This document shows positions 12,738 to 52,206 of a DNA stretch of 64,000 nucleotides, in pieces. The position numbers and the translations under genes are program-made. Within the stretch, counting starts at the first letter, position 1; the number at the start of each line of letters is the position of its first letter. The DNA lies in NCBI GenBank assembly GCA_023515725.1, contig JALDTO010000214.1, positions 165,743-229,742 on the forward strand. Reading direction: 5' to 3'. This stretch comes from Amoeboaphelidium protococcarum X5. Lineage: Eukaryota > Fungi > Aphelidiomycota. The notes below the pieces were generated by a model, which was not told the DNA's origin, made no database searches, and saw nothing but the letters and a program-made list of their open reading frames with translations.

Positions 12738-12987
12738 ATTTTTGAATAAGACACATTGTTGCCTTTACATATTGTAAAATTTTCATTATTAATATCTCGA
12801 CAATAGCTTATTTGAAGTCACCAGTTTAATATCACTGCATTCTGACATGTTTGCTTGTGGAGTACTGCGTCTCACATTAAGCTTAAAGTCACAACACGGT
12901 CAACTGAAGATTCTCCTTCCGAAACAACACCGTTCATTAAAAGACTTGACTTAATACAAAGATTTGATATTTGTGTCATTTTTATAA

Positions 12988-13959
12988 ATGGAAGATCCTA
13001 GATTTGCGGATATCATTGTGAAAGACCATGAGCGAAAGTCTGTTGAAGCGAATGTGGTGATAATTGGCTTCCCTCATGATGAAGGTGTTAGGCGAAATGG
13101 TGGGCGTGTCGGAGCCAAGGATGGACCAGCTAGCTTCCGTAAATTGTTCTATAGATTATGTTCATCAGACACTGAGAGTGGCGTGGATCTGAGTCAACTG
13201 AAGATTGTTGATTTCGGTGATGTGGATCCCTCATTGCCTTTAGAATAAGCTCACCTCAGATTGACAGAATTGGTGTATAAGGTTTTGTAAATTGGCGGTA
13301 TTCCCATTATAATCGGCGGTGGTAACGATCAATCTTATCTGAATGCATCTGCCCTAATTTAACATTTATTGGAGTTAAATAGCAATCCTCAGCGATTAGC
13401 CGAGTAAAAATTGCATGTAATCAATGTCGATGCTCACTTGGATGTGAGGCCACTAAAGAATGGCCAAGTACACTCTGGATCTCCATTTCGCCTACTGGTT
13501 GAAGATGATCGCTTCTCCAAGCAGTTGAGTGGCAAGTATATTGTGTACGCAGCACAAGGTCCACAATGTGCTTCACGTCACGTTGAATATATTAAATAAT
13601 CTGGTAATCAGGTAATGTTCCTGCCTGCGGTGAAATAGTCATTATCGAATTTTGAATTGGACCGTAATTGGCTGTCTGCGGTGGCTGAGACCAAAGCTAC
13701 CAGTATATTTGTATCGTTTGATATTGATTCTATTAGAGCTTCAGATTGTCCTGGAGTGAGCTGTTCATCACCAGATGGCCTATCTGCTGAAGAGGCTATA
13801 GTGATGTGCAAGCAGGCTGGTGGAGATAGTCGCGTTAGACTGATCGACTTTTCGGAATATAATCCAACTATTGAAGAGTATCGCACCGGCAGATTGTTGG
13901 CCATGATGGTACACGCTTTCTTGTGTGGCCTCGCTTAAAGACAATAACGTAAATAGTGA
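12988..13959 (+). CDS. hutG: Formimidoylglutamase (HutG, arginase/ureohydrolase family)
   Basis: GFPHDEGVRRNGGRVGAKDGP, GGGNDQS, NVDAHLDVR, HSGSPFR, SFDIDS, PGVS. Intronless, TGA13957. Confidence 0.9.
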
Positions 13960-14043: not shown

Positions 14044-15687
14044 TCAATTCCACTTGATATTATTAAGATCGGCCACATTCACGATCCATTCCATATTGTT
14101 GAATTCAATCCTCCATTGAGCCATCTTGTGATGTCCGTCATAGACTTCGCAGGTGTGCGCAGATGCTTTCGGTTTGAGACTCAGCTTAAATCTCAGCGGC
14201 AAGTGACGTTTGTCTTCACTCAACAGCTCTTGCTTTATGCCCCAAACCATCGAGTTATGGGTGGCAAGGGCGAATTGGGACAAGTTGGGGACAGTCTTGC
14301 ACCGGCACGGATTCCAAGATTGTTCGTAATACTCGGGCCAACGTTTAGGGAAATTGTCCACCATGTTGTGCATCATATCGACAGGCCAGCTCTAAGAATA
14401 ACGCCACAGTCCACGACTCTACACTGGGTCGGTATTCTCAATGACACTCCAGTCGGTGATTTCACGACTCTCACTGTACGAAGCAGTGAACGACTTGGTG
14501 TAATTAAAGTTCAGTCCACCTTCCACTTGCTCACCTTTAAACCCCAGATTCATACTCATCTGGAAACTATCGGTGGAAGACCAGCTGCGGCCAACTTCAT
14601 GCTTGGTGTTCTGTGTCGGAGGAGAACTTTTCAACCAGAATACATTATCCGGATCTTGAACACCATCTTCACGTTCTGCATGTACTCCAATCTCAACATT
14701 GGACATGTAAATACCGACTCCATCAGGATGAACCATCTAAGTATTTGGATTATGAAGACCATCAACCAGCACAAATGCATAGTACAGCTACTGGAATGGC
14801 GGTGCCTGCATATACAGATACCAGTAGGTGTTGAGTCGATGGGTTATCACTTGATCATCCTTGAAAGGAAACGGATCACTCCACGAGACAACCCAACTCT
14901 TATAAGTGGTCTCAATCAGCTATCGCCAAACAGCACCCTCATCCACAGGAACCATAGAACCAGTGTTTTAAACTTGGTCCATACCATCTTGGATCTTGAA
15001 TTACGCATCAGTGGATTTCTATCCTTGGACGTAATTCCAACAGGTGACTTGATCAAAATCTCCGGCACAATAATGTAAATAGTCATGCACATCTTGAGCA
15101 ATTTGCGAAAGCAACTTAGAGCTATCGTTGTTATTACTACCACCAAAAGAAGCAGTGAACACTTTAGCATCAGTTACAGCCTAGTCATTTGATGATCGCG
15201 AGTAATCAAGTCCAGAGTAAGCAGAGTGAACAATATTCCCATCCTTACCAGCAGGCAAATCAAAGACACGATAATGCACAGCATCATGGACATCCTGGAA
15301 AGTATCAATCAATAGTAGAGCACTGCCATCACTCGTGTCCTTCATGAAGGGGAACTTGGCTTCAGTCAATAACTACTTTCTCTATTCACTACTGACATCC
15401 ACAAGCATTACAGGAATTCCAAATTACAGAATTTACATTACAGATTAAAACTCTAAATCTAACTAGAAGCCAAGAGCCACATATGCAGCCACTGTATTAT
15501 TAGTAGATTCTTTATGAATGAACTACAACTAATGATCACCACTCTATTAAAGCGCCTTGACAATCTAGAACGAATCAGTGTTCTCAACTGCAATATGAGA
15601 GTCGCCAGACAACCACTGCAAAGTGACTGAAGCATGGGCAATACCAACAGCGCAAAATCCTGCCAAAATTGTAGATATAGTAACCAT
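14044..15687 (-). CDS. Secreted 547-aa protein, putative beta-pore-forming toxin (leukocidin/alpha-hemolysin/Vibrio cytolysin-like)
   Basis: Signal peptide MVTISTILAGFCAVGIAHA and a single open frame. Amphipathic hairpin SPPTQNTKHEVGRSWSSTDSFQMSMNLGFKGEQVEGGLNFNYTKSFTASYSESREITDWSV and downstream VPNLSQFAL. The ORF is solid; the function is inferred. Confidence 0.6.
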
Positions 15688-16048
15688 ACTTCTTACAATA
15701 TTTAACCACCTGATTGTAAGAAAGCACGACTACAAGTGACAATGATAAAGGACACACAAAACTAAATGAAGACAGAAAGAGAAAAACGCCCAAAACGATG
15801 ATAAAACGCGCAAAACCAAAATCAGGCGCCGAATGACGCCGCGAAATGCCCAGCTAATGTGGCGCTGAAACAAGTCCATTTTTATTGTTTCAGATCGAAA
15901 GAATGAATGGCTGGCTGTGTGATGGGCGATGCTCTGATAATTGTCTGCGCTACGTTCTCTTTCATACTCTGCACTGATGGTGATTTCGTTTCTCTTATAT
16001 GAATATCTCATTCATTGATTGTCAGACTCTCATATCTCGTCACATATA

Positions 16049-17552
16049 ATGTCTTAATTGTCTACTGCAAATTATAGTCAACAGTTAACGTAACAAACTC
16101 AGTTAGTTGGTACGTAGTAGACACAACATAGTCCGCGTGATACTCAGGATCTGAACTGTGCATGGGCAAAACTTGTTGGTCATCAAACTCATTGTAAGTA
16201 CTCTATTGATATATCATCCATTGAGTTTAACAAGAGCCATTTCACTAGTATTTGTAGTGCTGTTTGAGAATTGTGTTCCTATTGGGAGACACAGGACGTG
16301 CTAGATAAGAATTAATGACTTGCACGTTTCTAACCATCATTGCAGTGTGCAACGCGGCGCTGATGGAATTGTTTCACTCACTGACCTTTCGACAAATGGC
16401 ACGTTCCTTAATGGCATACAGGTCGGTAAAGGCAATCAGGTGCCACTGCAACACAATGATCACATCGAGTTACTGAAGGGACGGATTTTCTTCATCTTTC
16501 TTGACTTGGAGGATTCAAAGATGATGTCTGATAGCGTCAACGATCTTGCCCCGTGTCAGGAAAAGTATTATGTCTTGAACAAGGTTCTGGGAGAGGGTAA
16601 CTTTGCAACTGTGCAATTGGCTATACAGAAAGGTAGTATGGAGCGTGCAGCATGTAAGATTATTTAAAAGTCAAAGTTGGATCTGCATATCAACAAGAAA
16701 TAGTTTCAGCATCTCAGAAATGAAGTTCAAGTCTTGCAATCGATCAATCATCCTAATTTAGTGCAGTTGCTGGATGTTTATGAGACTGACAAGTCTATCT
16801 ACCTAATGCTGGAGTACGTTGGTGATGGCGGAGAGCTGTTTATGCGTCTGCAAAGCCGTATTGAACTGTATGAGCAGGTGCCAGACGATTTGAAACCTCG
16901 TACTTTTCCAGGATTGGATCCACTCGAAGTATAATTTGTGTTCTACTAATTGCTGCTTGGTACCTAGTATTTGCATGAACATGATATTAGTCATAGAGAC
17001 TTGAAGTTGGAGAATATACTACTGGAGACCAATGACAGATTTACTCGCGTCTGTATCACTGATTTTGGACTGAGTAAGATTCAAAGTAATAAGACTCGTC
17101 TGCAGACAATGTGCGGAACTCTGATATACGTAGCTCCTGAAGTCTTAATGAACACCAAGGAAGATTCAGGATATTCTAATAAATGCGACTGCTGGTCTTT
17201 AGGAGTCATTCTTTACATGCTAGCTTCAGCTTCAATGCCGTTTATTGATGGAGGAGATGACCAGCAGTTGAAGTATCTGATCACACGCGGAATCTACGAA
17301 TTTGATGATCCTGTTTGGGATCTATTTGATCCATCAATCACTGATTTGATAAGCAAGTTGCTGATTGTTGATGTTGGTATGAGATACTCTATCAGTCAAG
17401 CCTTGAATCACCCGTGTGTACAATCAGACATATTCAAGCTGTCGAGATTGTATGAAAGTGTGACGCTCAAGTCTCAAAGCGAGACAATCACCGACGATGA
17501 ACTGTACGCAAAGACTGAGATTGACTCCTCTCGTAATATCATCTACTACTGA
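16049..17552 (+). CDS. Chk2/Cds1/Mek1-family checkpoint kinase (SQ/TQ cluster, FHA, kinase; 1 intron)
   Basis: N-terminal SQ/TQ cluster, intron 16194-16248, FHA IGRH..VSNHHC..STNGTFLNG, kinase HRDLKLEN, DFG, CGTLIYVAPE. Confidence 0.9.
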
Positions 17553-20065: not shown

Positions 20066-20911
20066 ATGGTATCCTATGTTGATATCATCTTTCTGGTGTC
20101 ATCTTTCCTTGTCATTCATGTCGCGTCAGCTGTTTCAAGTGAATTTCAAGAAATGCTCAATCTCGTGAATGCTGAACGCGCATCTAAAGGGGCCCCGGCC
20201 GTTTGTTTGAACGCTAAACTGAACCAAGTGGCGTAGCGCTATGCATAGGTACTCGATGCTGCTGGAGCTATGGAGCACGAAGGTGTTGACGGGACCGATT
20301 TACCTACGCGTTTGTAGGCTGCAGGCTTTCCATACTCCTCTGCAGGAGAAGTCTTGGCGAAATGCTCCAAGCCTCAAGATGCTGTACGAGGTTGGATTAA
20401 TTCTCCTTCACATCACAGCGCAATGATCGATCCAAAGTATCAATTAGCTGGTATTGGACAAAGCGGCTTAAAGTGGGTCATGTACTATGCAGCGTCTGGT
20501 GAGGAGAAATGTTCTTCTGAATTGCCTGCAACATCTCCATCCCCAAGCGCAAAAGCTTATCACTCCACTGATTCCCCCGCCTCTGATGTCGATGCCCATA
20601 CATAAACTTAATCGTTGCCATTGTAAAGCATTTTATCTGCGCCGATTGCTGTTGGTTAGCCCTCGTCGTCTAATCCTCCGGCTACACCAACTTCATCGCC
20701 ATCTGGTTCTCCTTCTCCCGCCGATAGTGCCGCTTCGTAAGAAGAAATATTTCTCGATCTCTCTAGCTAAAGCAGTTTGGATACATTGAAATCCATTATC
20801 ATTGGTATATTTCCTGGTCTGGCAGAATCGTCCGAGTAGCTGGATCAGCTAAATCAAGCGTTGGAGCGCCACGGAATTGGCAAAGGCGGTGTCACCTACA
20901 TGGCTGGCTGA
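20066..20911 (+). CDS. Secreted CAP/SCP (PR-1-like) protein with Ser/Pro-rich tail
   Basis: Signal peptide; MLNLVNAERASKG, LNAKLNQVAQ, MEHEG, AVRGWINSPSHHSAM. Confidence 0.88.
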
Positions 20912-21098: not shown

Positions 21099-24000
21099 TC
21101 AAGACTGTGACAGCTTCTAAACTTCACCAGCAATAGCTATAGCAGACGGTCTCATAGAAGAATCTTGAGCCCAAGCAAGTTGAACAACCTGAAATAGCAT
21201 ATGTGCACGGCTTTCCAGAAATTGAGCTTCAGGCCTTGCACCTTGCAGCACCAGCTCAGCAACTTACGCTGCATTGAAGCCTTCCCATGCCTTTGTGCGC
21301 GTCAATATCTCAAACATCACCACAGCACCAGCATAAACATCGCTTGAAGGAAGAAGATGCTCAGGCACTTATAATTATTACAAAACTTCTGGAGCAGCAT
21401 ACTTAATAGAGTGACCTTTCAACAAATTCCATTATAAGCCTTTGACAAAGTTTGCCTGAGACTGGATTGTGCAGATACCAAAGTCTGTCAAAACCGCACG
21501 CAAAACTCTATTACTGCCTTGCTATACCAAATAATTACCGGATTTGATGTCATTGTGGACGACAGAATTGAAATGCAGGATAGAAAGCGAAGTCATTACG
21601 TCCAAACATAAAATCTGCTGTTACTCCATTGAATAGTCGACCTGTTGAAAAGGCAAAGCTTGGCCCAGAATCAGCTGTTCCAAAGACCCCAGTTCATAAT
21701 TGATCATAAGCAATACATTGTGCAGAGTATCGAAACCAACCAGCTTTGCAATCTAGTCATCGTCTTTGAATCTCCACATCAGAGCAATCTCCTGATGAAC
21801 GCTATCCTTCTGCACTTTGCCAATGAAGCATTTAGCTGCAACCAATCTTGTACTACTTGTAGCAAACGGATGCAAAGTCGGAAAAGACAAAATCTCTGCA
21901 ACCTAAATCTCAGCTTATCCGCCCTTGTTGATAAAGAAAATTGGGTACCATTCTAAAATTTATAACACGCTTCAACTCCAAGTATGCTGGCACAGCAACT
22001 TCCATCGAAGAATTCATAAACGTTGTACCACCCATCGCTGTACCTCCTATTTAAATCGCCGAACCAATTGCCGCATTTAATGTTTGATCAGTCATACCTC
22101 CAGTATTCCTTAATAACAGCATCTTGGAAGACCTCATGCGAGCCTTGATGTATCTGCGCCTGATGCAATACATAGACAGCAGAACCAACACTAAAATCAA
22201 AAAGCAGACAATCGCATTAACAATGATGTACACGGTCATCGTAGAGGACTAGGTACCAGGCTACATTTAACCTGCTTAGCCATCACTTATGGTCATACTG
22301 CCTCCAGATCTAGAGCTATGTTCAGCAGACTTCAACGTAAACATCACTTGAGTAGTATAATTTACCAAACTAGCGGTACTTACAAAACCAAATTCTGATG
22401 ACGTTGGCAAAGTATTAACTTTACTCTCATCTTGAGACGAAATAGAGGTTATGTGGCTTATTATACTACTTTCAAATAATCCTGTACTCATGACTGTTGT
22501 AGTACTAGTGGGTGTTGTGGTAGTCGTCGTCGTAGTGGTGGTTGTAGTCGTGGGAGTTGTAGTTGTAGTAGCAGTAGTTGTTGTGGCAGTAGTAACAGGG
22601 TCAAAGTCCAAATAATTTGCAACACGTAACCACTACCAGACGTTGGTAAATTTACAGCGTTAATGTTGGAACTATCAAACAGCTAGGATGCACTACCGAA
22701 AGTACCAGCCAGAATCATACTATTGTCTTTTCCTCTCAGAATATCACGGACAGTGATTCCACTCGTACCACGGAAACTATACAGAAATTTACCAGATGGA
22801 CTGAACTTCAGCACAGTTGATGGAGATGATGAAATGCTTTAACTATTCCCCAATCCATCTACTACAGAAACAGAAGACGATGAAAGCTATGCAGCCACAA
22901 AGACATTTGAGACAGCGTCCACAGCACAATCAACAGCCTAATCATTACTAGCACCATCCATTGTTGCAACATAAAGTAGAGCACTACCAGGGCTGTAAGT
23001 CGCAACAAAGCCACTAAGAAGAACTTGACTGGGATTTACACTGCGACCTGATTATCCATTGACGCCATAGAATCCAAGAGGATATGCTGTTATATAATAC
23101 GAACCAACTAGGACGATATTACCATTCGGTGACACGCTTAGAGCGGAAGGTACTGGTTGAGAATCATCGATACGCACCATCCATTAAAAAACACCACCAC
23201 CACTAAACTTCGCCAAAAATAGAGCCGATTTTAAAATCATATTGTTTTATAGAGTTTTTGGCAGAATCACGAACGCCAAGTTAGCCAATGGGAGTATTAT
23301 AGCCATTTTACATAGTGTCTCCAAAAGTAAATGATCCAGCCACATACACATCACCAGTTGATTACGACACGGCAATAGCAGAGTTACATGTTACCACAGC
23401 AGCATACCCAATATTGACTCTCCACAGCTCAGCACCACTTGGATTTATCTTGCGCACGTTGCAGACGGTAGTTGTTGGACTGAAGCTAAATCCTCCATAT
23501 AAATACGATAGAGCCTGGTTAGCTTGAGACATTTGAAAAATATTGTTATCAGAATCAACTGCAAGTCCGTATACCGCGGGAAATTCATTAGGTAGGAACC
23601 CAGCCCATTAAAACCCGCCTTACGATGACAATTTAGCGTGCCATTATGCTGTAGTGCTTGCATAGAGAATGTAATTCACTGCTGTATTTATATTGATATA
23701 AATATCATCAATGCCCGAGACCAATCCGCCAGAGATAATAAGATCACCTTGATTGTCTGTTGTCTGTAACCAGCGAAAGACCATTAGCTTCGGCTTGGGT
23801 GTATATGGATGAAGTCCACAGAATATTGCCAGTCTAGCCATTTATTTTCACAAAGGAAAGCGCATTCTTATTACAGTAATTATTATACGGCTCTTAGACG
23901 GCTCCACCAAAAGTTGTAGTGAACTAAGATTAGATGTTAAAGTAAATGAACGATACAATAAAGTCGCCATTGGGGTCGGTAACAGTGCCTAAGTATCTTA

Positions 24001-36871: not shown

Positions 36872-39334
36872 TCATTGATCAATCTCTTCTACGGAACTCA
36901 GACCGGGCGCGGAAGGTACCTGGATGGTTTTCCTGTGCATGGCCTTCTTCTCTTTTTCAGTCAGCACGTCCACAGTTTTCATGCGAAAGCGTTAATTTCC
37001 TTTGCTTGTGGGCACTGTCGAGGCGGGCCGTTGTTTCTGATCAGCCACTGGAAGATCTCTACTGCTAGTGTTCTTGGTGCTCTGTCGGAGGTGTGCCGAC
37101 AATTTCGTCAATTGAGTCCAGTCATATTGAGGTAGTTCAGAGTATTACGCCTTCAACTTTTACTTGATTTTCTCAAAGGACATTCTTTCCATCGGATTGC
37201 CACTCCAACATATCATCATGATCTCGTTCAAACTCTTCAATAAATCACTTGATCGAATCTAAGCAAGAGTATCCTAATCAAACTCTGGCCGTTGTCCCTC
37301 TCTGACTGCGCATTCAATCTCATCTGAATGCATTCTGTCCCAGCAAGATTTCTTGGCCATCATCTCCCAGATCACAATAGCGAAAGCGTAAACATCGGCC
37401 ATTTTCTCTTCCTCTGGATTGGTCATGGACATTGCTGACTAATCTTTGCTGGCAGAGGTCACGGTATTTCCCTTTAGGTAGAGTCGTTTGAAAACTTCAG
37501 GTGCTGCATATCTAATTGAGATACCTTGAACATCCGCAAATTTGGCTCCTTTGATATCAGACTCACCAATGATCTTTGCAAGTCCAAAATCACAAATCAC
37601 CGCACGCCAGTAGTTAGGATCGCCAATCTCTCGAGGTGCGTCAATTAGAATATTATTTGGCTTTATATCACGATGAACAATTCCGATTGAGTGCATTTCA
37701 CACAACGCGTCAGACACATGGTACGTCATTCGGAACACTACTTCAGGAGTGAGTGCGTAGTGAAGAGTACTAGTCTTTATGACATCGCTTAATGAACGTG
37801 CATAGTACTTCATGACAATAGATAACGGTTCATCGGTGAATCCAATCAACTTGATTATATTCTCATGGAAATTAAGACTCCACATAATGGCCACTTCAGT
37901 TTTAAAATTCAGCACTAATTCTTCTTGTGTCCACGTTCCAGGATTCTTGACCAATTTCACAACTACGTGCTTAGTTCGATACTTGGTACGGAGACGATCA
38001 TCTAGCAGTTCAGCTTCATAGATCACGCCGCCACCACCTTCGGCTATAACTTTATACGGTCTCACGTCAGCATTATAGTCAATTTTCAAGAATCCAGGAA
38101 GAGCAATGGCTGTCTTTGTATTGATCATTGTACAGTCGGCAGGATTCATCATCATTCTCCCAGTGGCACCAAATTGCTATTGTTATTGAAATCTATCAAC
38201 CTCCTCGCCATAAATTTCATCAAAATCTTGAGATGCTTCAACGCTGTGCAGCTAATCAGCAGACTGTTCAATGCTTTCAGCACTTGCTCCAACCGTCTTA
38301 CTACTTGCATGGAGATTCTTCTTATGCAACTTCTTAGTAGAGCCATGTTCAAGATCACCTTGATTATTGGTTAAAAACATTGACAGTCTCTTCTATCTCC
38401 TATAACAGCCAATAATAAGTATGATTGACAACAGGGCAATTACACCAGAGACACAAATTAAAATAATGACAATCATACTATTTAAGCCATTGCTATTACC
38501 GTTAGAATTTAACTGATCAGAAGATCCAGGTTAGGATGAAGTTGGAGGCTGGGTACTAGAAGGGCCGTCCGAATTAACAGTCGACGATGTAGCAGCAGTA
38601 GTTGGCATCATAGTACCAGATGGTATAGTGGCTGAGATGGGGATACATTTTGGTGGATTATTCCAAATGCCTCCGTACACCTTGGCGTAACTAATGCCAT
38701 TTCCACCTAGTTATCCGACTGAATCCGCAGGTAAAGGAGAACAAGCGAACGTATTCTATACTGGCGCCTGCTGCACTTCACTAATATTCAGACCGATGAC
38801 AGTCTGTGAGGAGGCTGCAGTATTACCACCGCCTTGACACCGCATAATAAGGCTGTTAGTTGAAATGAAGGATCCTGCAGCGATCTACTGATAGCCAGTG
38901 GTAGACGGGATATCATTGCATGACTAGAAAGCATAAGCGTTCGCTGCGGCAATTTCAGAATCTAAAAATGGCTTAGCAATACCAATGCCTTGATATTTGC
39001 AGACCACTTAGTTCACAACTCCAGTTTGCGGATGCACAAGATCAAAGGTGAGGTAAGAGAGTGCATCTCCGGAATTTCCAACGGGTAGATTGGTGACATT
39101 AAGGAAGCGAGGAACTTCAATCACAAGCGATTAACTGTCCAATGATACAGTTCCATTCGGAGAACCAGCATAAGATAAAAATGCGTCAACGTATCTCATA
39201 GTACCAAAGTTAGTTACCACATTCGCCGTCGCTTACAGTTGATAGAACCGGCATGGTCTCACCAGCGTGCAATCTTGAGCCCAAGCCCTTAAGATGTAAC
39301 ACACAGCAACAATAATAAAACTGAATCGCAACAT
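36872..39334 (-). CDS. Receptor-like (TKL) protein kinase with unrecognised Cys-containing ectodomain
   Basis: Signal MLRFSFIIVAVCYILRAWA, TM IVIILICVSGVIALLSIILIIGCY, kinase EGGGG, HRDIKPNN, DFG, YAAPE. 820 aa. Confidence 0.88.
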
Positions 39335-45330: not shown

Positions 45331-48300
45331 ATGCTCGTATCTGTCATTTTTGGCATTTGCTGCTTTGTGACAACCGTAGTGTGTGATTATGCGAATGTGT
45401 CATGGGTTGGCACGCTTTCAAACAATTGGCTTTAATACATTGACACTGTGACTGACCCCAATGGTGACTTCATTGTATCATACTGGTACACGGGAGTCCA
45501 GTCTCAGTTTGTCACTTCATTTGGTGGTGCTGTATAAAACACGTAGAATTTCAATTATGGGCTGTATGCCTCTTCTTTCGTAAAAGTTAGTGGCTCGACT
45601 GGCTAGATTTTGTGGACAATATCCATGTCTGGCCCATAAGGCGCTTATAGTTACTAGCTGACTACTGACAGCTAAGGCAATCTATTTGCTTCTGGTTAAC
45701 TTTACGCTGGCGTTGCAACATTGAACTTTTATTTCAACGGGGGTTTAGTCTATACTTTGGCAACAAGTACAACATCATCATGGCACGCTAAGTGGTCGTC
45801 AGCTGGTCAATTGTAGTGGGCCGGTTTTCAATCTAATGAGTTTCCTACAATTACAGGACTTGCATCGGATTCTGGTAACAATATTTTTCAAATCTCATAA
45901 GCTAGCCAGACTCTTTCCTACACTTACGGGGGATTTAGCTTTAGTCCCACAACTTCTGTCTGCAATTTGCGAAAGGTAAATCCCAGTGCTGTGTAGCTTT
46001 GGAAAGTCAACATTGGATATGCTGCCGTAGTATCATGTAGCTCAGCAATTGCCGTGTCCTAAACAACTGGTGATGTGTATGTAGCTGGATCGTTCACTTT
46101 TGGGGACACTGTGTAGAATGGTTATAAGACTCCAATTGGCTTACTCGGCATTCGTGATTCTACCAACCAGCTTTACATCACCTAACAAAGCAATATGACT
46201 CTGAAATCAGCTTTATTTTTGGCCAAGTTTAATAACAATGGCGTCTTCTAGTGGTTGGTACGCATTGACGATTCGCAACCTTCACCATCCGCTCTAAGTG
46301 TGTCGCCCAATGGAAATGTCATCCTAGTTGGTTCGTATCAGAACACAGCATCACCTCTCAATTTCTACGACACTAACGGTTAATTGGTCCGCAGTGTAAA
46401 TCCTGCTCGAGTAATGCTTAGTGGCTTTGTGGCGACCTTCAGCCCATCTGGTGCATTAATCTACGTTGCGACGATGGACGGATCAGGTGATGATTATGCC
46501 TACCACAGTGCAGTGGGAGCTGATTCTAATGCCTTTGTGGGATCATACTCTTCATCAACGTCTATTGCCGTGATTGACGGATTAGGAAATAGCTATAATA
46601 TTGCAGCGTCTGCCTCAAGTATATTAAAGTTTAGTCCATCTGGCAAATTTCTGTATAGCTTTCGCGGAAGTAGTGGTATTTCAGGCAGTAATATACTAAA
46701 AGGTTTTAACAATAGTCTGATTTTAGTTGGAAGTTTTGGCGGTGCATAAAAATTCTTTGACAGTTCCTCCGATAAAGGTGTGGATGTTCCGACAACTGTT
46801 GGAGGTATGGTATTTGCAAAGTACTTGGATTTTGTGTAAACGCCGACTACCACTACTACAACAACAACAACAACAACAACCACAACTACTACCACTACCA
46901 CTACAACCACGACTACTACCACTACTAGCACGACTACTACCACTACAACCACTACAACTACCACTACTACCACACCAACTACTACGACTACAACTACAAC
47001 AACCACCACGACTACCACCACAACAACGACGACTACTACCACACCTACTACTACGAGTACAACGACAACTACTACTACACCGACAACAACTACGACTACC
47101 ACAACGTCGACTACTACAACAACACACTATAGTAGTACGACAGTCATGAGTACTGGGTCATCTGAAAGCAGTATAATAAGCCATATAAGCTCTACTGCGC
47201 CCCAAGGTGAAAGTAAAATCCATGCTTTGCCAACGTCATCGGAAGTTGGTTTTGTAAGTACCGTCAGTTTGGTGAATTATACGAATCATGTGATGTTTAC
47301 GTTGAAGCCTGCTGAACATAGTTCCAGATCTGGAGACAGTATGACACTAAGTGACGGCGAAGCAGGATAAGTGTAGCCTGGTACGTAGTCCTCTATGATG
47401 ACTCTGTACATCATTGTTATTGCGATTGTATGCGTTTTAATTCTAGTATTGTTTTTGCTGTCAATATATTGCATTAGGCGCAGATACATCAAAACACGAA
47501 TGCTTTCCTCTAGAATGAAGAATAAGACATCAAGTAGTGCTGCTGGTACAACCAATCAATCATTTAGTACAGTTATAGGCCCTGCGACCTAAGTAGTAGG
47601 AACTTTGATGAGTGGGACAACGTATATGAACACTTCGATGGAAGTTGCGGTGCCTGCATATTTGGAGTTGAAGCGCGACTTAAATTTTAGAATGCTGCCC
47701 AATTCCTTCATAAATAAAGGTGGTTAAGCTGAGATATAGGTTGCGGAGATTTTGTCGTATCCACCTGGACATCCTTTCGCTTCAGTTGGTACTAGATTCG
47801 TAGCTGCTAAATGCTTTATTGGCGATGTTAAGAGAGATAGCGTTAATCAAGAGATTGCTTTAATGTGGAGATTCAAAGACTATGACCAAATTGCAAAACT
47901 AGTGGGATTTGATGGTTAACATAATGTTTTGCTAATTATAAATTACGAACTTGGTTCGTTGGAGTAGCTTATTCTGAATCAAGCTTAAGCCGTGGATTAC
48001 TCTATTGAATTGCAGACGATGCTATGCTTTGACGTTATTACTGCATTGGTGATCCTTCATCAGAGTGCTGTGGTCCACAATGACATAAAGTCTGGCAACT
48101 ACTTACTGTATCAAGACGCTAACGGCGCCTTGAGAGCTTCTCTGACGGACTTTGGTATCTGTACGCTTCAGTCCCGGGCCAATGTTGTGTAAGGCATAGA
48201 ATGGAATCGATTGCAAGGCCACACTGTCTCTTATGCTGCACCTGAGGTTCTTGCGAGATCATTGGTTCCAGAGTAGCTTCTTCCTGCTAGAGATGTTTAT

Positions 48301-48537
48301 GCTGGCGCTGTGGTGATGTTTGAGATTTTGGCGCGTAGGAAAGCTTGGGGAGGCTATAAAGCAGCTCAAGTCACTGAAATGGTCCTCCAGGGTTTAAGAC
48401 CTGAGGCTTAATTTTTGAATGATCGTGCTCTTATGCTTTTCCAAGTTGTTCAAATTGCATGGGCTCAAGATCCTTTCATGAGGCCTGTTGCTGCAGCTAT
48501 TGCCAACGAGATCCAGAATCTCGCATAAAATTTATGA
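45331..48537 (+). CDS. Receptor kinase: signal peptide, beta-propeller, poly-Thr stalk, TM, non-RD TKL kinase
   Basis: Single intronless frame (1068 aa). Blades such as TDSQGNLFASG, GDVYVAGSF, FLAKFNNNGVFQW, GNVILVGSY; TM plus RRR; VAAK, HNDIKSGN, DFG, YAAPE. Confidence 0.9.
46839..47140 (+). repeat. Poly-Thr (ACN)n stalk
   Basis: ACT/ACA/ACC/ACG run of about 100 codons. Confidence 0.92.
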
Positions 48538-48882
48538 TTTTTATATGATGATTTAATACAATGTTTTTAAGCTTTCATGTGGTTTCAACATTTACTGTTT
48601 GCAAAGTGTACATAGTCCGTGGTCCAGTAAACAAACAATAAGCTCAAATTTCTTGCGAGAAGTGCTGCACTGCTTTAGAGTTCCATTGAATCTATTTTTA
48701 GCCTGATGACGATTTGTACAATGATTTATTAGCCATGGTGCCATCTTTTACAAAGCCCCTGCATTCTTATCAAGTAATCTTGGTTGAATGTATACTAAGC
48801 TGATAATTATCTAAACTCTATTTTCTGGGTATTAATATTATATAAGCTAGATATTAAATCAGTTCAAATTATCAACAATCTA

Positions 48883-50581
48883 ATGCACGCTTTGGTTATT
48901 CTTCTCATCTACTGCTTTGTATCGACTGCCTGGTGTGACTAAGCCAATGGATCCTGGGTTGGCACATTGTATAACAACCTGTTCTAATACAGTGCCACCG
49001 TTACAGATCCTTTTGGAGATTTTATACTACTGCATCGATATGCTGCCGGTCAATCCTAATTTGCCACCACTCTTGGTGGTGCGGTCTAGAATACACAAAA
49101 TTTTTTCTCTGCATCTCTACCGTTTTCATTTTTGAAGATTAATGGGTAAACTGGCTAGATTTAATGGACTGCATCCGTTGACTGCAGTACTGGTGTTTTC
49201 AGCTGGCAATTGACCACAGACAATTAAGGTAATCTCATTGCAACAGGTTTCGTTTTTGGTGTTGCTGCTCTGAGATTTTATTTCAATGGAGTATTGGTCT
49301 AAACATTGGCATAAAGTACAACAACCCCATGGCACGCCAAGTGGTCGCCAGCGGGTCAATTCCTTTGGGCTCAATTTCTACCTGCTGATCTATCTAGGAT
49401 TACCGGACTTGCAGTTGATTCTGCTAACAATATCTTTCAAATGTCGTAGGTTAACCAGGCTCTTTCATACACATATGGGGGATTTAGCTTCAGTCCTTCA
49501 ACTACCGTCTGCAACTTGCGCAAGGTAAATCCTAGTGGTGCTTAGCTGTGGAAAGTCAACATTGGGCATGCTGCAACTACAACCTGTAACTCTGCTATTG
49601 CCGTGTCGTAGTCAACAGGCGATGTGTATGTTGCTGGATCGTTCACTTTTGGGGACACTGTGTAGAATGGCTACAATACTCCAATTGGCTTATTAGGCAT
49701 TCGAGATTCCACTAATTAGCTCTATAATACTCAACAAAGCAACATGATTTTAAAGTCGGCTCTATTCTTGGCTAAATTCAATAGCGCTGGTGTCTTCTAG
49801 TGGCTGGTGCGTATTGACGATTCGTAACCAGTACCATCCGCTCTAAGTGTGTCGCCAGATGGAAATGTTGTCCTTGTTGGCTCGTATCAGAATACAGCTT
49901 ATGCTCTTGGGTTTTACGACATTAATGGTTAACTAGTCCGCAGTGTGAATCCTGCTCGAGTAATGATGAGTGGCTTCGTAGCGACCTACAGTCCAACTGG
50001 TTCTCTAGTATATGTAGCGACAATGGACGGAGCTAGTGATGATTAGGCCGTTGATTGTGTTGTGGACGCTGTCTCCAACGTATTTGTGGCAGCATAGCTT
50101 GCATCGCCTGCTGTCGCTGTAGTTGATGGATTAGGGAATAGCTAAAGTATTCCATCATCTCCGTCAACCGTGCTGAAGTTTAGTCCATCTGGTAAGTTTT
50201 TGTATAGTTTTCGAGGTACTGGCATCACCGTTCGTGATATTCTGAGAGGAATCGACAATAGCTTGATTCTAGCTGGTTAATTTACCAGCGGATCCAAATT
50301 ATATGATAGTTCCAACATTAATGGTTTGGATATGCCGTGGTCTGGTAGTGGTTACGTGTTTGCAAATTATTTGGATTATGACTCTACTCCGACAACCACA
50401 AGTACTACTACTACGACTACTACTACAACAACAACTACGACTACAACAACAACTACGACTACGACAACCACGTCGACAACTACCACTAGTACCACCACAA
50501 CAACAACTACTACTCCGACCACAACTACGTCTACTACAACCACGACGACTACTTCTATTAGTGCTACAACAACATCAACCC

Positions 50582-50624
<43 letters not shown>

Positions 50625-52206
50625 GACGACGACGACTCCTACTACAACGACAACCACGACTACCACTTTGATCTCAACTACGACTACGACGACGATTACC
50701 ACACTTTCTACGACTACACCGACTACTGTGACTGCTCCGACAACAGCTAGTACTACGCCGACAACGACTACTGCCACAATGTCATTTGCTAGTGCAATAT
50801 TATCCGAAGCTGCCTTAATAAGTCTCGTTAACTCCACCACATCCTAAATTGCTGTTGATATTAGCTCAATGACAACTTCTCTGTTGTCTGATCCACAGAC
50901 TACTACTGCAATCTTGATTAGTCACACTACAAAACTAATTTTCGAGTTGCTCTCGAACGAGTAAAGCTCTAGTATTACAAATAGTATGTCACTCAATGAC
51001 GACGTAGCAGGACAAGTATAGCCTGGAACTTAGTCTTAAATGATGACACTGTACATTATTGTCATTGTGATTGTGTGCGTTTTAATCATTGCAGTCGTTC
51101 TACTGTCTATGTACTGCATAAGGCGCAGGTACATCAAGGCTCGCATGAGATCTTCCAAGACACTGTTATCAAGGAATATTGGAGGTATGACTGATCAAAC
51201 ATTAAATGCGGCAATTGGTTCGGCGATTTAAACAGGAGGCACAGCGATGGGTGGTACAACGTTTATGAATTCTTCGATGGAAGTTGCTGTGCCAGCATAC
51301 TTGGAGTTGAAGCGTGATATCAATTTTAGAATGGTACCCAATTCCTTTATCAACAAGGGCGGATAAGCTGAGATTTAGGTTGCAGAGATTTTGTCATATC
51401 CTGCGGGACACCCTTTTGCTACAAGTGGAACTAAATTCGTAGCAGCTAAATGCTTCATTGGCAAAGTGCAGAAGGATAGCGTTCATCAGGAGATTGCTCT
51501 GATGTGGAGATTCAAAGACTATGACTAAATTGCAAAGCTGATTGGTTTCGATACTTTGCTCAATGTATTGCTTATGATCAATTATGAACTGGGCTCTTTG
51601 GAGTAGCTGATTCTGGGCCAAACTCAGTATGCTTAATCGGTCAACTATTCAATGGAGTAACAGCAAATTTTATGCTTAGACGTTTTCGCAGCGTTATGGA
51701 TCTTGCATTAGAATGCTGTGGTCCACAATGACATCAAGTCTGGCAACTATTTGGTGTACCAAGACGCTAGCGGTCTATAACGCGCTGTACTGACAGACTT
51801 TGGTATTTGTACTCTACTTTCGCGGGCGAACGTAGTGTAGGGTATGTAATGGAATTAATTAAAAGGCCACACTGTCACGTATGCTGCACCAGAGGTTTTG
51901 TCTAAACTACAAGTTCCAGAGCAGCTTCTCCCTGCAAGAGATGTTTACGCTGGTGCTGTGGTGATGTATGAGATTTTGACGCGTAGAAAAGCATGGGACG
52001 GCTATAAAGCAGCTTAAATCACTGAAATGGTACTTTAAGGTTTAAGACCCGATGCATCATTTCAGAATTACCGTGTGCAGCTGCTCTTTCAGATTATTTA
52101 ACTTGCTTGGGCTCAAGATCCTCAAATGAGGCCTACTGCGGCAGCTATAGCTGGTGAGCTATAAAACATTCCACCAATTGAATACACGACGACACTAATG
52201 TAATGA
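48883..52206 (+). CDS. Tandem paralog receptor kinase: beta-propeller, poly-Thr stalk, TM, non-RD TKL kinase
   Basis: Single intronless frame (1107 aa) colinear with 45331-48537. HNDIKSGN, DFG, YAAPE. Confidence 0.9.
50383..50778 (+). repeat. Poly-Thr (ACN)n stalk, long
   Basis: About 130 codons, including a pure (ACT)n tract near 50587-50622. Confidence 0.92.

Follow-up and report, generated by a model that had tools for sequence, protein, structure and literature searches.

A predicted pore-forming protein of the Vibrio cholerae cytolysin type in the aphelid Amoeboaphelidium protococcarum and its relatives in amoeboid eukaryotes and bacteria

Background

Does an algal parasitoid related to fungi encode a protein of a pore-forming toxin family described from bacteria, and if so, where did the gene come from and what might it do? 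The question is raised by a long open reading frame in a 64,000-nucleotide stretch of the A. protococcarum X5 genome (hereafter, the window). An earlier note on this DNA read the frame as a hidden gene for a secreted beta-pore-forming toxin of the leukocidin or Vibrio cytolysin type, and considered it a candidate host-attacking effector acquired horizontally.

Aphelids are described as phagotrophic parasitoids of algae and as the sister group of fungi (PMC10608142, PMC6299283). In Vibrio hemolysins, the pro-domain is reported to act as a folding chaperone and inhibitor that is removed by proteases, after which the cytolysin domains associate into a heptamer whose pre-stems enter the membrane as a barrel. 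Histidines of the rim contribute to membrane binding, and the toxins require cholesterol (PMC10517994, PMC12369381). Eukaryotic members are named only for the aerolysins and actinoporins in the available text of PMC9558359. Within the literature searched, which was mainly open and consisted of titles and the beginnings of abstracts, no paper described a hemolysin-family fold from an aphelid or an amoeba, and the Amoeboaphelidium genome paper with its supplements, or structure-database annotations, may note the fold or a transfer. The available text of a review of Dictyostelium defence (PMC5758549) gave no matches for five pore-toxin terms.

Reading frame and genetic code

The gene is real, in that it forms an intact 547-codon frame. 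It occupies positions 14044–15687 of the window on the reverse strand, consists of a single exon under genetic code table 6, and ends with TGA. Twenty TAR codons (14 TAG and 6 TAA) are read as Gln. That the gene is visible only with this reading, as had been claimed, is true of the gene as a whole, since table 11 yields just two pieces of at least 100 amino acids in the same frame (14044–14376 and 14419–14736). TGA terminates every one of 16 genes checked in the window, among them the present one, and TAR codons make up 36–68% of the Gln codons in these genes (51% in the present one). Under the same reading, neighboring frames strongly match the Pfam families Porin_3, Arginase, DEAD and Glyco_hydro_47 as well as kinases, and the TAG codons of the conserved domain at residues 432, 317 and 300 align to Gln in 8/8, 6/8 and 4/8 homologues from outside A. 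protococcarum, respectively. As judged from these translated neighbors and homologues, TAA and TAG encode Gln in the genome's own code.

Base composition and codon use of the gene are ordinary for the window (GC 0.43, GC3 0.45 and a codon-use correlation of 0.70, with 0.46–0.91 for the other 15 window genes). Translation from another in-frame ATG, at 16011, would lengthen the protein by 108 residues to 655; this start was rejected because homologues start at the ATG at 15687 and the 547-residue form is present in the sequence collection. The 90% protein cluster to which the protein belongs contains three named A. protococcarum proteins, with the 547-residue form among the database entries, and the presence of four near-identical copies is in keeping with genome duplications described in PMC10608142. 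Identity between copies is 296–298 of 302 residues (98–99%) in the cytolysin domain and 72–79 of 85 (85–93%) in the pro-domain core. Neither a second copy nor a partner gene in the style of bicomponent toxins was found within the 64-kb window. One sequencing run gave two short contigs of 247 and 361 bases at identities of at least 99%, which are uninformative on expression.

Sequence searches

The earlier assignment to the leukocidin family found no counterpart in Pfam, where neither the protein nor its relatives (0 of 10 and 0 of 37 in two sets) matched PF07968; the protein had no Pfam or NCBIfam match of any kind. No PDB sequence matched below an E value of 0.5, whether the protein itself or profiles A1, A3 and A4 served as the query. 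Local HH-align comparison with VCC-type toxins was weak (probability 0.8–10%). Global profile alignment against four VCC-type toxins was colinear from the pro-domain to the C-terminus with a score of 22.3, compared to at most 11.2 in 40/40 block shuffles and 4.5 for the reversed profile, and paired the stem, the D-W/D-Y exit and the P-x-L-S motif with those of the toxins.

A phmmer search of 1.84 billion representative sequences returned 50 matches at E ≤ 0.001, from which P0045, a protein with FctA repeats, was removed because its match was spurious and due to composition (it scored 2.6 bits with the A2 profile). Profile searches of a word-indexed collection added few members. The metagenome scan gave 52 pattern matches and no relatives, and nothing in phages matched a VCC-type query.

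Predicted structure

An AlphaFold2 model of the full protein, built from 10 sequences (pLDDT 60.7, pTM 0.68), comprises a small alpha/beta domain (residues 66–150) and a long beta domain (250–541), joined by a linker that is helical and in part disordered; the stem region has pLDDT < 50 and hence is not resolved. Foldseek ranked V. campbellii pro-alpha-hemolysin (8jbq; 1.1e-9) and pro-VCC (1xez; 5.3e-9) first and second, followed by LukGH, NetF, beta-toxin, Epx4, gamma-hemolysin and alpha-hemolysin, and all 33 rows listed were hemolysin-family entries. A VIA search of 48,161 chains, carried out independently of Foldseek, gave Z 17.3 for 1xez (rmsd 5.1; 313 residues aligned, model 67–542 on chain 21–456), with six more hemolysin-family chains at Z 10.4–12.8 and the best unrelated fold at 6.7. 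The VIA Z score of the other Vibrio pro-cytolysin was 16.8. Nothing meaningful was matched in a viral fold library. The model and both structure searches support the proposed alpha-hemolysin/leukocidin fold and place the Vibrio cytolysins closest, so that a fold of the VCC-type cytolysin kind is, as a prediction, very likely. By predicted structure, the protein is a member of the alpha-hemolysin fold family that lies outside PF07968 as that family is now drawn.

Aerolysin folds were absent from the top rows of every fold search, and the hemolysin family fits the model far better. Eukaryotic aerolysin-like proteins such as the biomphalysins provide a precedent, in the accounts available, for eukaryotic beta-pore toxins, but they constitute a separate fold family.

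The lead of the pro-toxins over the mature toxin bears on the N-terminal region. Mature VCC (3o44) reached Z 12.1 with 216 residues aligned and covered only model residues 249–541; the extra score of the pro-toxin therefore comes from the N-terminal domain, which in the context of the full model lengthens the alignment by ~97 residues and raises Z by ~5. Folded alone (pLDDT 73.7), this domain aligned to residues 21–103 of 1xez at Z 4.3, rank 4 of 48,161 and tied with SepF, and gave no significant Foldseek match and no Pfam match. The suggestion of a pro-domain like that of V. cholerae cytolysin is probably correct: in the full model, 313 residues align to pro-VCC versus 216 to mature VCC, although the isolated domain gives no clear match.

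Models from the ESM Atlas were made independently of the AlphaFold2 model, and both sides of these comparisons are predictions. Residues 14–467 of the model of a Calothrix homologue (P0052) match a cluster bearing PF07968 and PF12563 with TM 0.64. Large clusters from Bacteroidota, Synergistota (with BACON domains) and Planctomycetota, and one rich in archaea, resemble the family more than VCC does, which suggests a wider, unannotated group of predicted pro-cytolysin-like proteins.

Domain organization and the pre-stem hairpin

Residues 1–19 (15631–15687, reverse strand, as are all features below) form a likely signal peptide, in agreement with the earlier reading, with cleavage placed at an A-H-A pattern. 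All nine closest homologues scored share a hydrophobic N-terminus, with mean KD values of 2.2–3.7 as compared with 2.5 (over 10 residues) in this protein. There is no transmembrane helix, because no 19-residue window beyond the N-terminus exceeds 1.4 in a hydrophobicity scan. As read from the sequence, the protein is likely secreted.

The N-terminal region that had been put at ~220 residues spans residues 20–245 (~225 residues). It begins with a variable extension (residues 20–65; 15493–15630), mostly of low pLDDT with a helix at 40–48, in which the alignment to 8jbq starts at model residue 32. The predicted pro-domain core (residues 66–150; 15238–15492) has the order beta-alpha-beta-alpha-beta-beta and, by its structure match, is a likely homologue of the VCC pro-domain. 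In the model, it is followed by a linker (14953–15237) that contains a helix pair bearing Cys207 and Cys216 and then a disordered segment (residues 223–253), where proteolytic maturation would probably occur; residue 136 of mature VCC is aligned with model residue 249.

The cytolysin domain (residues 246–547; 14047–14952), an alpha-hemolysin-type beta-sandwich with a rim according to the fold searches, reaches the C-terminus, where VCC residue ~456 lies, and is followed by no lectin domain. C-terminal tails are at most 20 residues in 55 of the 59 C-complete family rows, the longest being 93. The P-x-L-S motif (residues 467–470; 14278–14289) aligns to the P-L-S of VCC-type toxins, bearing out the resemblance noted earlier for the segment VPNLSQFAL (residues 466–474). 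His519 (conserved in 81% of the family rows) and His520 (in 94%), at 14128–14133, are possibly rim histidines, with the register not fixed. Rim histidines have been described for VCC (PMC10517994); equivalence to these was not confirmed, as hhalign places them elsewhere.

The hairpin segment quoted in the earlier note is present at residues 355–415, and within it the predicted pre-stem comprises the 58 residues P356–W413 (14449–14622) with a turn at 382–387. Thirty-four percent of its residues are S, T or G, and hydrophobic residues alternate with polar ones along both arms (F375, M377, M379 and L381 in arm 1; V388, L392, F394, Y396, F400, A402 and Y404 in arm 2). Family column averages alternate likewise over the 36 rows covering the hairpin, with an S/T/G fraction of 0.24–0.53 in 35 of them. 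Corresponding lengths are 55 in phobalysin P and 54 in the dictyostelid members, which have a similar D/E-G-P turn. By its length, its alternation and its alignment to the phobalysin stem, the segment is a predicted pre-stem of the alpha-hemolysin-family type.

A fold common to toxins shows no function by itself, and the protein could be a domesticated, non-lytic derivative that serves in adhesion, as a scaffold or in signaling and has lost pore formation. The second stem strand carries an N-glycosylation sequon (N395-Y-T) that could hinder insertion if used, lectin domains are lacking, structural identity to any toxin is below 15%, and in one paralogue from the A. occidentale cluster the stem is degenerate (S/T/G 0.16). 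Against this reading, members from eukaryotes and bacteria alike keep both stem length and two-residue alternation, and all three other A. protococcarum copies have an identical stem (58/58 positions); we regard loss of pore formation as rather improbable.

Compared with known toxins, the protein shares a likely signal peptide, a probable pro-domain, a linker and a predicted cytolysin domain with VCC/HlyA (1XEZ), V. campbellii alpha-hemolysin (8JBQ) and phobalysin P, along with a pre-stem of like length (58 versus 55) and colinear motifs around the stem and P-x-L-S. It differs from VCC in having neither a beta-trefoil nor a beta-prism lectin domain, a longer linker with the Cys-bearing helix pair, and a structural identity of only 7–8%; the gene is eukaryotic, has relatives apparently with an intron, and matches neither PF07968 nor PF12563. 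Being without lectin domains, the predicted protein is not VCC proper. Staphylococcal alpha-hemolysin, the bicomponent leukocidins, clostridial NetB, NetF and delta toxin, and CytK share the beta-sandwich, rim and stem core (Z 10–13) and also have no lectin domain, but they have no pro-domain and show 5–14% identity.

Distribution and phylogeny

Among 29 homologue clusters looked up, 13 carried an organism name: three aphelid, one from Pelomyxa schiedti, five dictyostelid and four bacterial (Calothrix, Sulfobacillus, Thermoanaerobaculia and Paracaedibacteraceae); a Haematospirillum plasmid supplies a fifth bacterium. P0033 and P0084 are labelled after a named protein that belongs to their 90% cluster. 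None of the 13 named clusters is from fungi, animals or plants. The nearest named relatives are those of another aphelid, A. occidentale, and then of Pelomyxa, with identities of ~47–53% to A. occidentale and other close relatives. Bacterial members look sporadic from the sequences at hand, the Calothrix seed being itself the sole member in 301 cyanobacterial genomes searched (1/301), and several have no pro-region. Those without it include the Haematospirillum jordaniae plasmid protein (L003:3686–4735) and that of a Paracaedibacteraceae genome (P0069). The Paracaedibacteraceae are a family of protist endosymbionts, and these two members mark a possible route of gene exchange.

In five homologue clusters, the proteins break off at one site after residue 480, with Gly, and one of them resumes in frame; a spliced A. 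occidentale model reads through this site. An intron thus appears, from the proteins only, to be common to these five clusters and absent from the A. protococcarum gene.

The main tree was computed from the cytolysin domain of 31 rows, with fragments and near-copies left out, and is unrooted with long branches; a 44-row quick tree agrees with it. One side holds the aphelids, Pelomyxa and eight further rows in a 12-row clade with support of 100/99 that contains none of the five named bacteria, and the other holds the dictyostelids (97/92) and bacteria. A constraint uniting the named eukaryotes is not rejected (p-AU 0.27). As the tree is unrooted and its branches are long, one old eukaryotic origin and two transfers are indistinguishable.

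These results bear on the proposal of a parasite-specific effector of bacterial origin, acquired in the aphelid line and perforating the algal plasma membrane at penetration. In keeping with such a role are the signal peptide, the VCC-like fold, the strong conservation among aphelids and the reported injection of the trophont through a tube (PMC6299283), as well as the occurrence of eukaryotic members at two places in the tree with bacteria between them and the lack of fungal or animal members. However, the closest named non-aphelid relative is Pelomyxa, a single clade of named eukaryotes is compatible with the data, five homologue clusters apparently share an intron, codon use is native, and the gene also occurs in free-living amoebae. 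We therefore consider an entry effector of this kind unlikely. The tree offers no support for a recent bacterial donor, and horizontal acquisition in any recent sense was rejected on the aphelid and Pelomyxa relationships, the apparent shared intron and the codon use; nor is the gene parasite-specific, its family including free-living amoebae and dictyostelids. An old bacterial origin is possible. The occurrence of relatives not just in other aphelids but in free-living amoebae and slime moulds too makes it likely that a pore-toxin family seen as bacterial has an old, unrecognized eukaryotic branch. Such a conserved branch, with a VCC-like pro-domain and without lectin domains, would widen the hemolysin family, which has been described from bacteria.

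An aphelid-specific sugar porter is reported to have its best matches likewise in aphelids, dictyostelids and bacteria (PMC10608142), a parallel that hints at a recurring shared gene set. In A. occidentale, MP638_000110 (P0016) and MP638_000111 (P0076/P0033) bear consecutive tags and correspond to the orthologue and the divergent, degenerate-stem paralogue; the pair is reminiscent of tandem two-component leukocidins, or of a decoy. In the MP638_000111 model, the paralogue seems to have been joined in error to a Rieske/DUF455 gene.

Proposed mode of action

Because the anatomy matches step by step, lectin domains excepted, a VCC-like cycle is the best inference, and on this analysis the protein is reasonably likely to be a secreted, protease-activated beta-barrel pore former. 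It would be secreted with its pro-domain attached; a protease would then cut the disordered linker (residues 223–253) and release the pro-domain, the cytolysin domains would form a ring on a membrane, into which the alternating hairpins would insert as a beta-barrel pore. This confidence attaches to the mechanism and not to the target. If a pore is formed, its target may quite plausibly be the engulfed or surrounding algal membrane during feeding, reached by a secretory or food-vacuole route, since the family is spread over phagotrophic amoeboid cells. Proteases of the food vacuole or secretory route would activate the protein away from the cell's own ER, and since there is no lectin domain, the Trp/His-rich rim would have to select the membrane. 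Presence in free-living phagotrophs favors a feeding role over an invention of the parasite. The protein would be a first molecular candidate for the breaching or digestion of algal membranes by aphelids.

A pore former of phagotrophic cells might instead be directed at bacteria or competitors. The family is indeed present in bacterivorous amoebae, and its aphelid member has no lectin domain to bind eukaryotic glycans. Characterized hemolysin-family toxins are reported to target eukaryotic membranes, however, with VCC needing cholesterol (PMC12369381, PMC9558359), and the aphelid diet is algal cytoplasm; an antibacterial role is highly improbable.

The only family member studied genetically, the D. 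discoideum protein StcA (DDB_G0267562; P0071), counts against a feeding pore, as the available report gives it a developmental phenotype and an expression peak at 20 h of development, unlinked to feeding (PMC4404348). There, a stcA insertion near the 3' end partly rescues tgrC1-null development, with non-cell-autonomous rescue of sporulation, and the protein is described as without distinctive features, its sequence giving no functional clue. A 10-sequence aphelid-clade profile scores StcA at E 1.2e-15, and homology extends over the pro-region and cytolysin domain. Its Atlas model, although weak (pLDDT 0.47), matches leukocidin/VCC clusters. StcA is a member of the family, with a predicted leukocidin/VCC-like fold, and shows that a family protein can act in development. 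It differs from the aphelid protein in its ~16–23% identity, its hairpin of 54 residues, its place in the other half of the tree and in being known only genetically.

These data would fit a self-directed developmental pore, acting in signal release, programmed lysis, sporangium cleavage or zoospore exit, for which a pro-domain would permit timed activation. The aphelid protein need not have the role of StcA, which stands in the opposite half of the tree, and we doubt that such a pore is the function here. Tentatively, and keeping to protease-gated feeding pores in aphelids, an ancient eukaryotic alpha-hemolysin/VCC branch may have persisted in amoeboid phagotrophs on either side of the Opisthokonta–Amoebozoa split and been turned to multicellular development in Dictyostelium, with StcA as a pore former of the TgrC1 pathway. 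In any case, stcA, an orphan gene with a mutant and a phenotype, gains a testable biochemical hypothesis in a tractable organism.

Genomic context

The flanking genes give an ordinary eukaryotic context in which no mobile element was seen. An arginase-family gene (12847–13959, forward strand) converges on the 547-codon gene and ends 84 bases from its stop. On the other side lies a kinase gene (16152–17552, forward strand), the open frame of which continues upstream beyond the annotated ATG; the upstream extension contains what we take to be an FHA-like motif. Four kilobases away, 20066–20911 (forward strand) encodes an effector-like, secreted CAP-domain protein with a Ser/Pro-rich tail. The window also holds receptor-like kinases at 45331–48537, 48577–52206, 21099–23841 (reverse strand) and 36872–39334 (reverse strand), laid out as a signal peptide, a propeller-like or unknown ectodomain, a Thr-rich stalk, a transmembrane helix and a kinase domain; two of them stand in tandem and a third copy reads in pieces.
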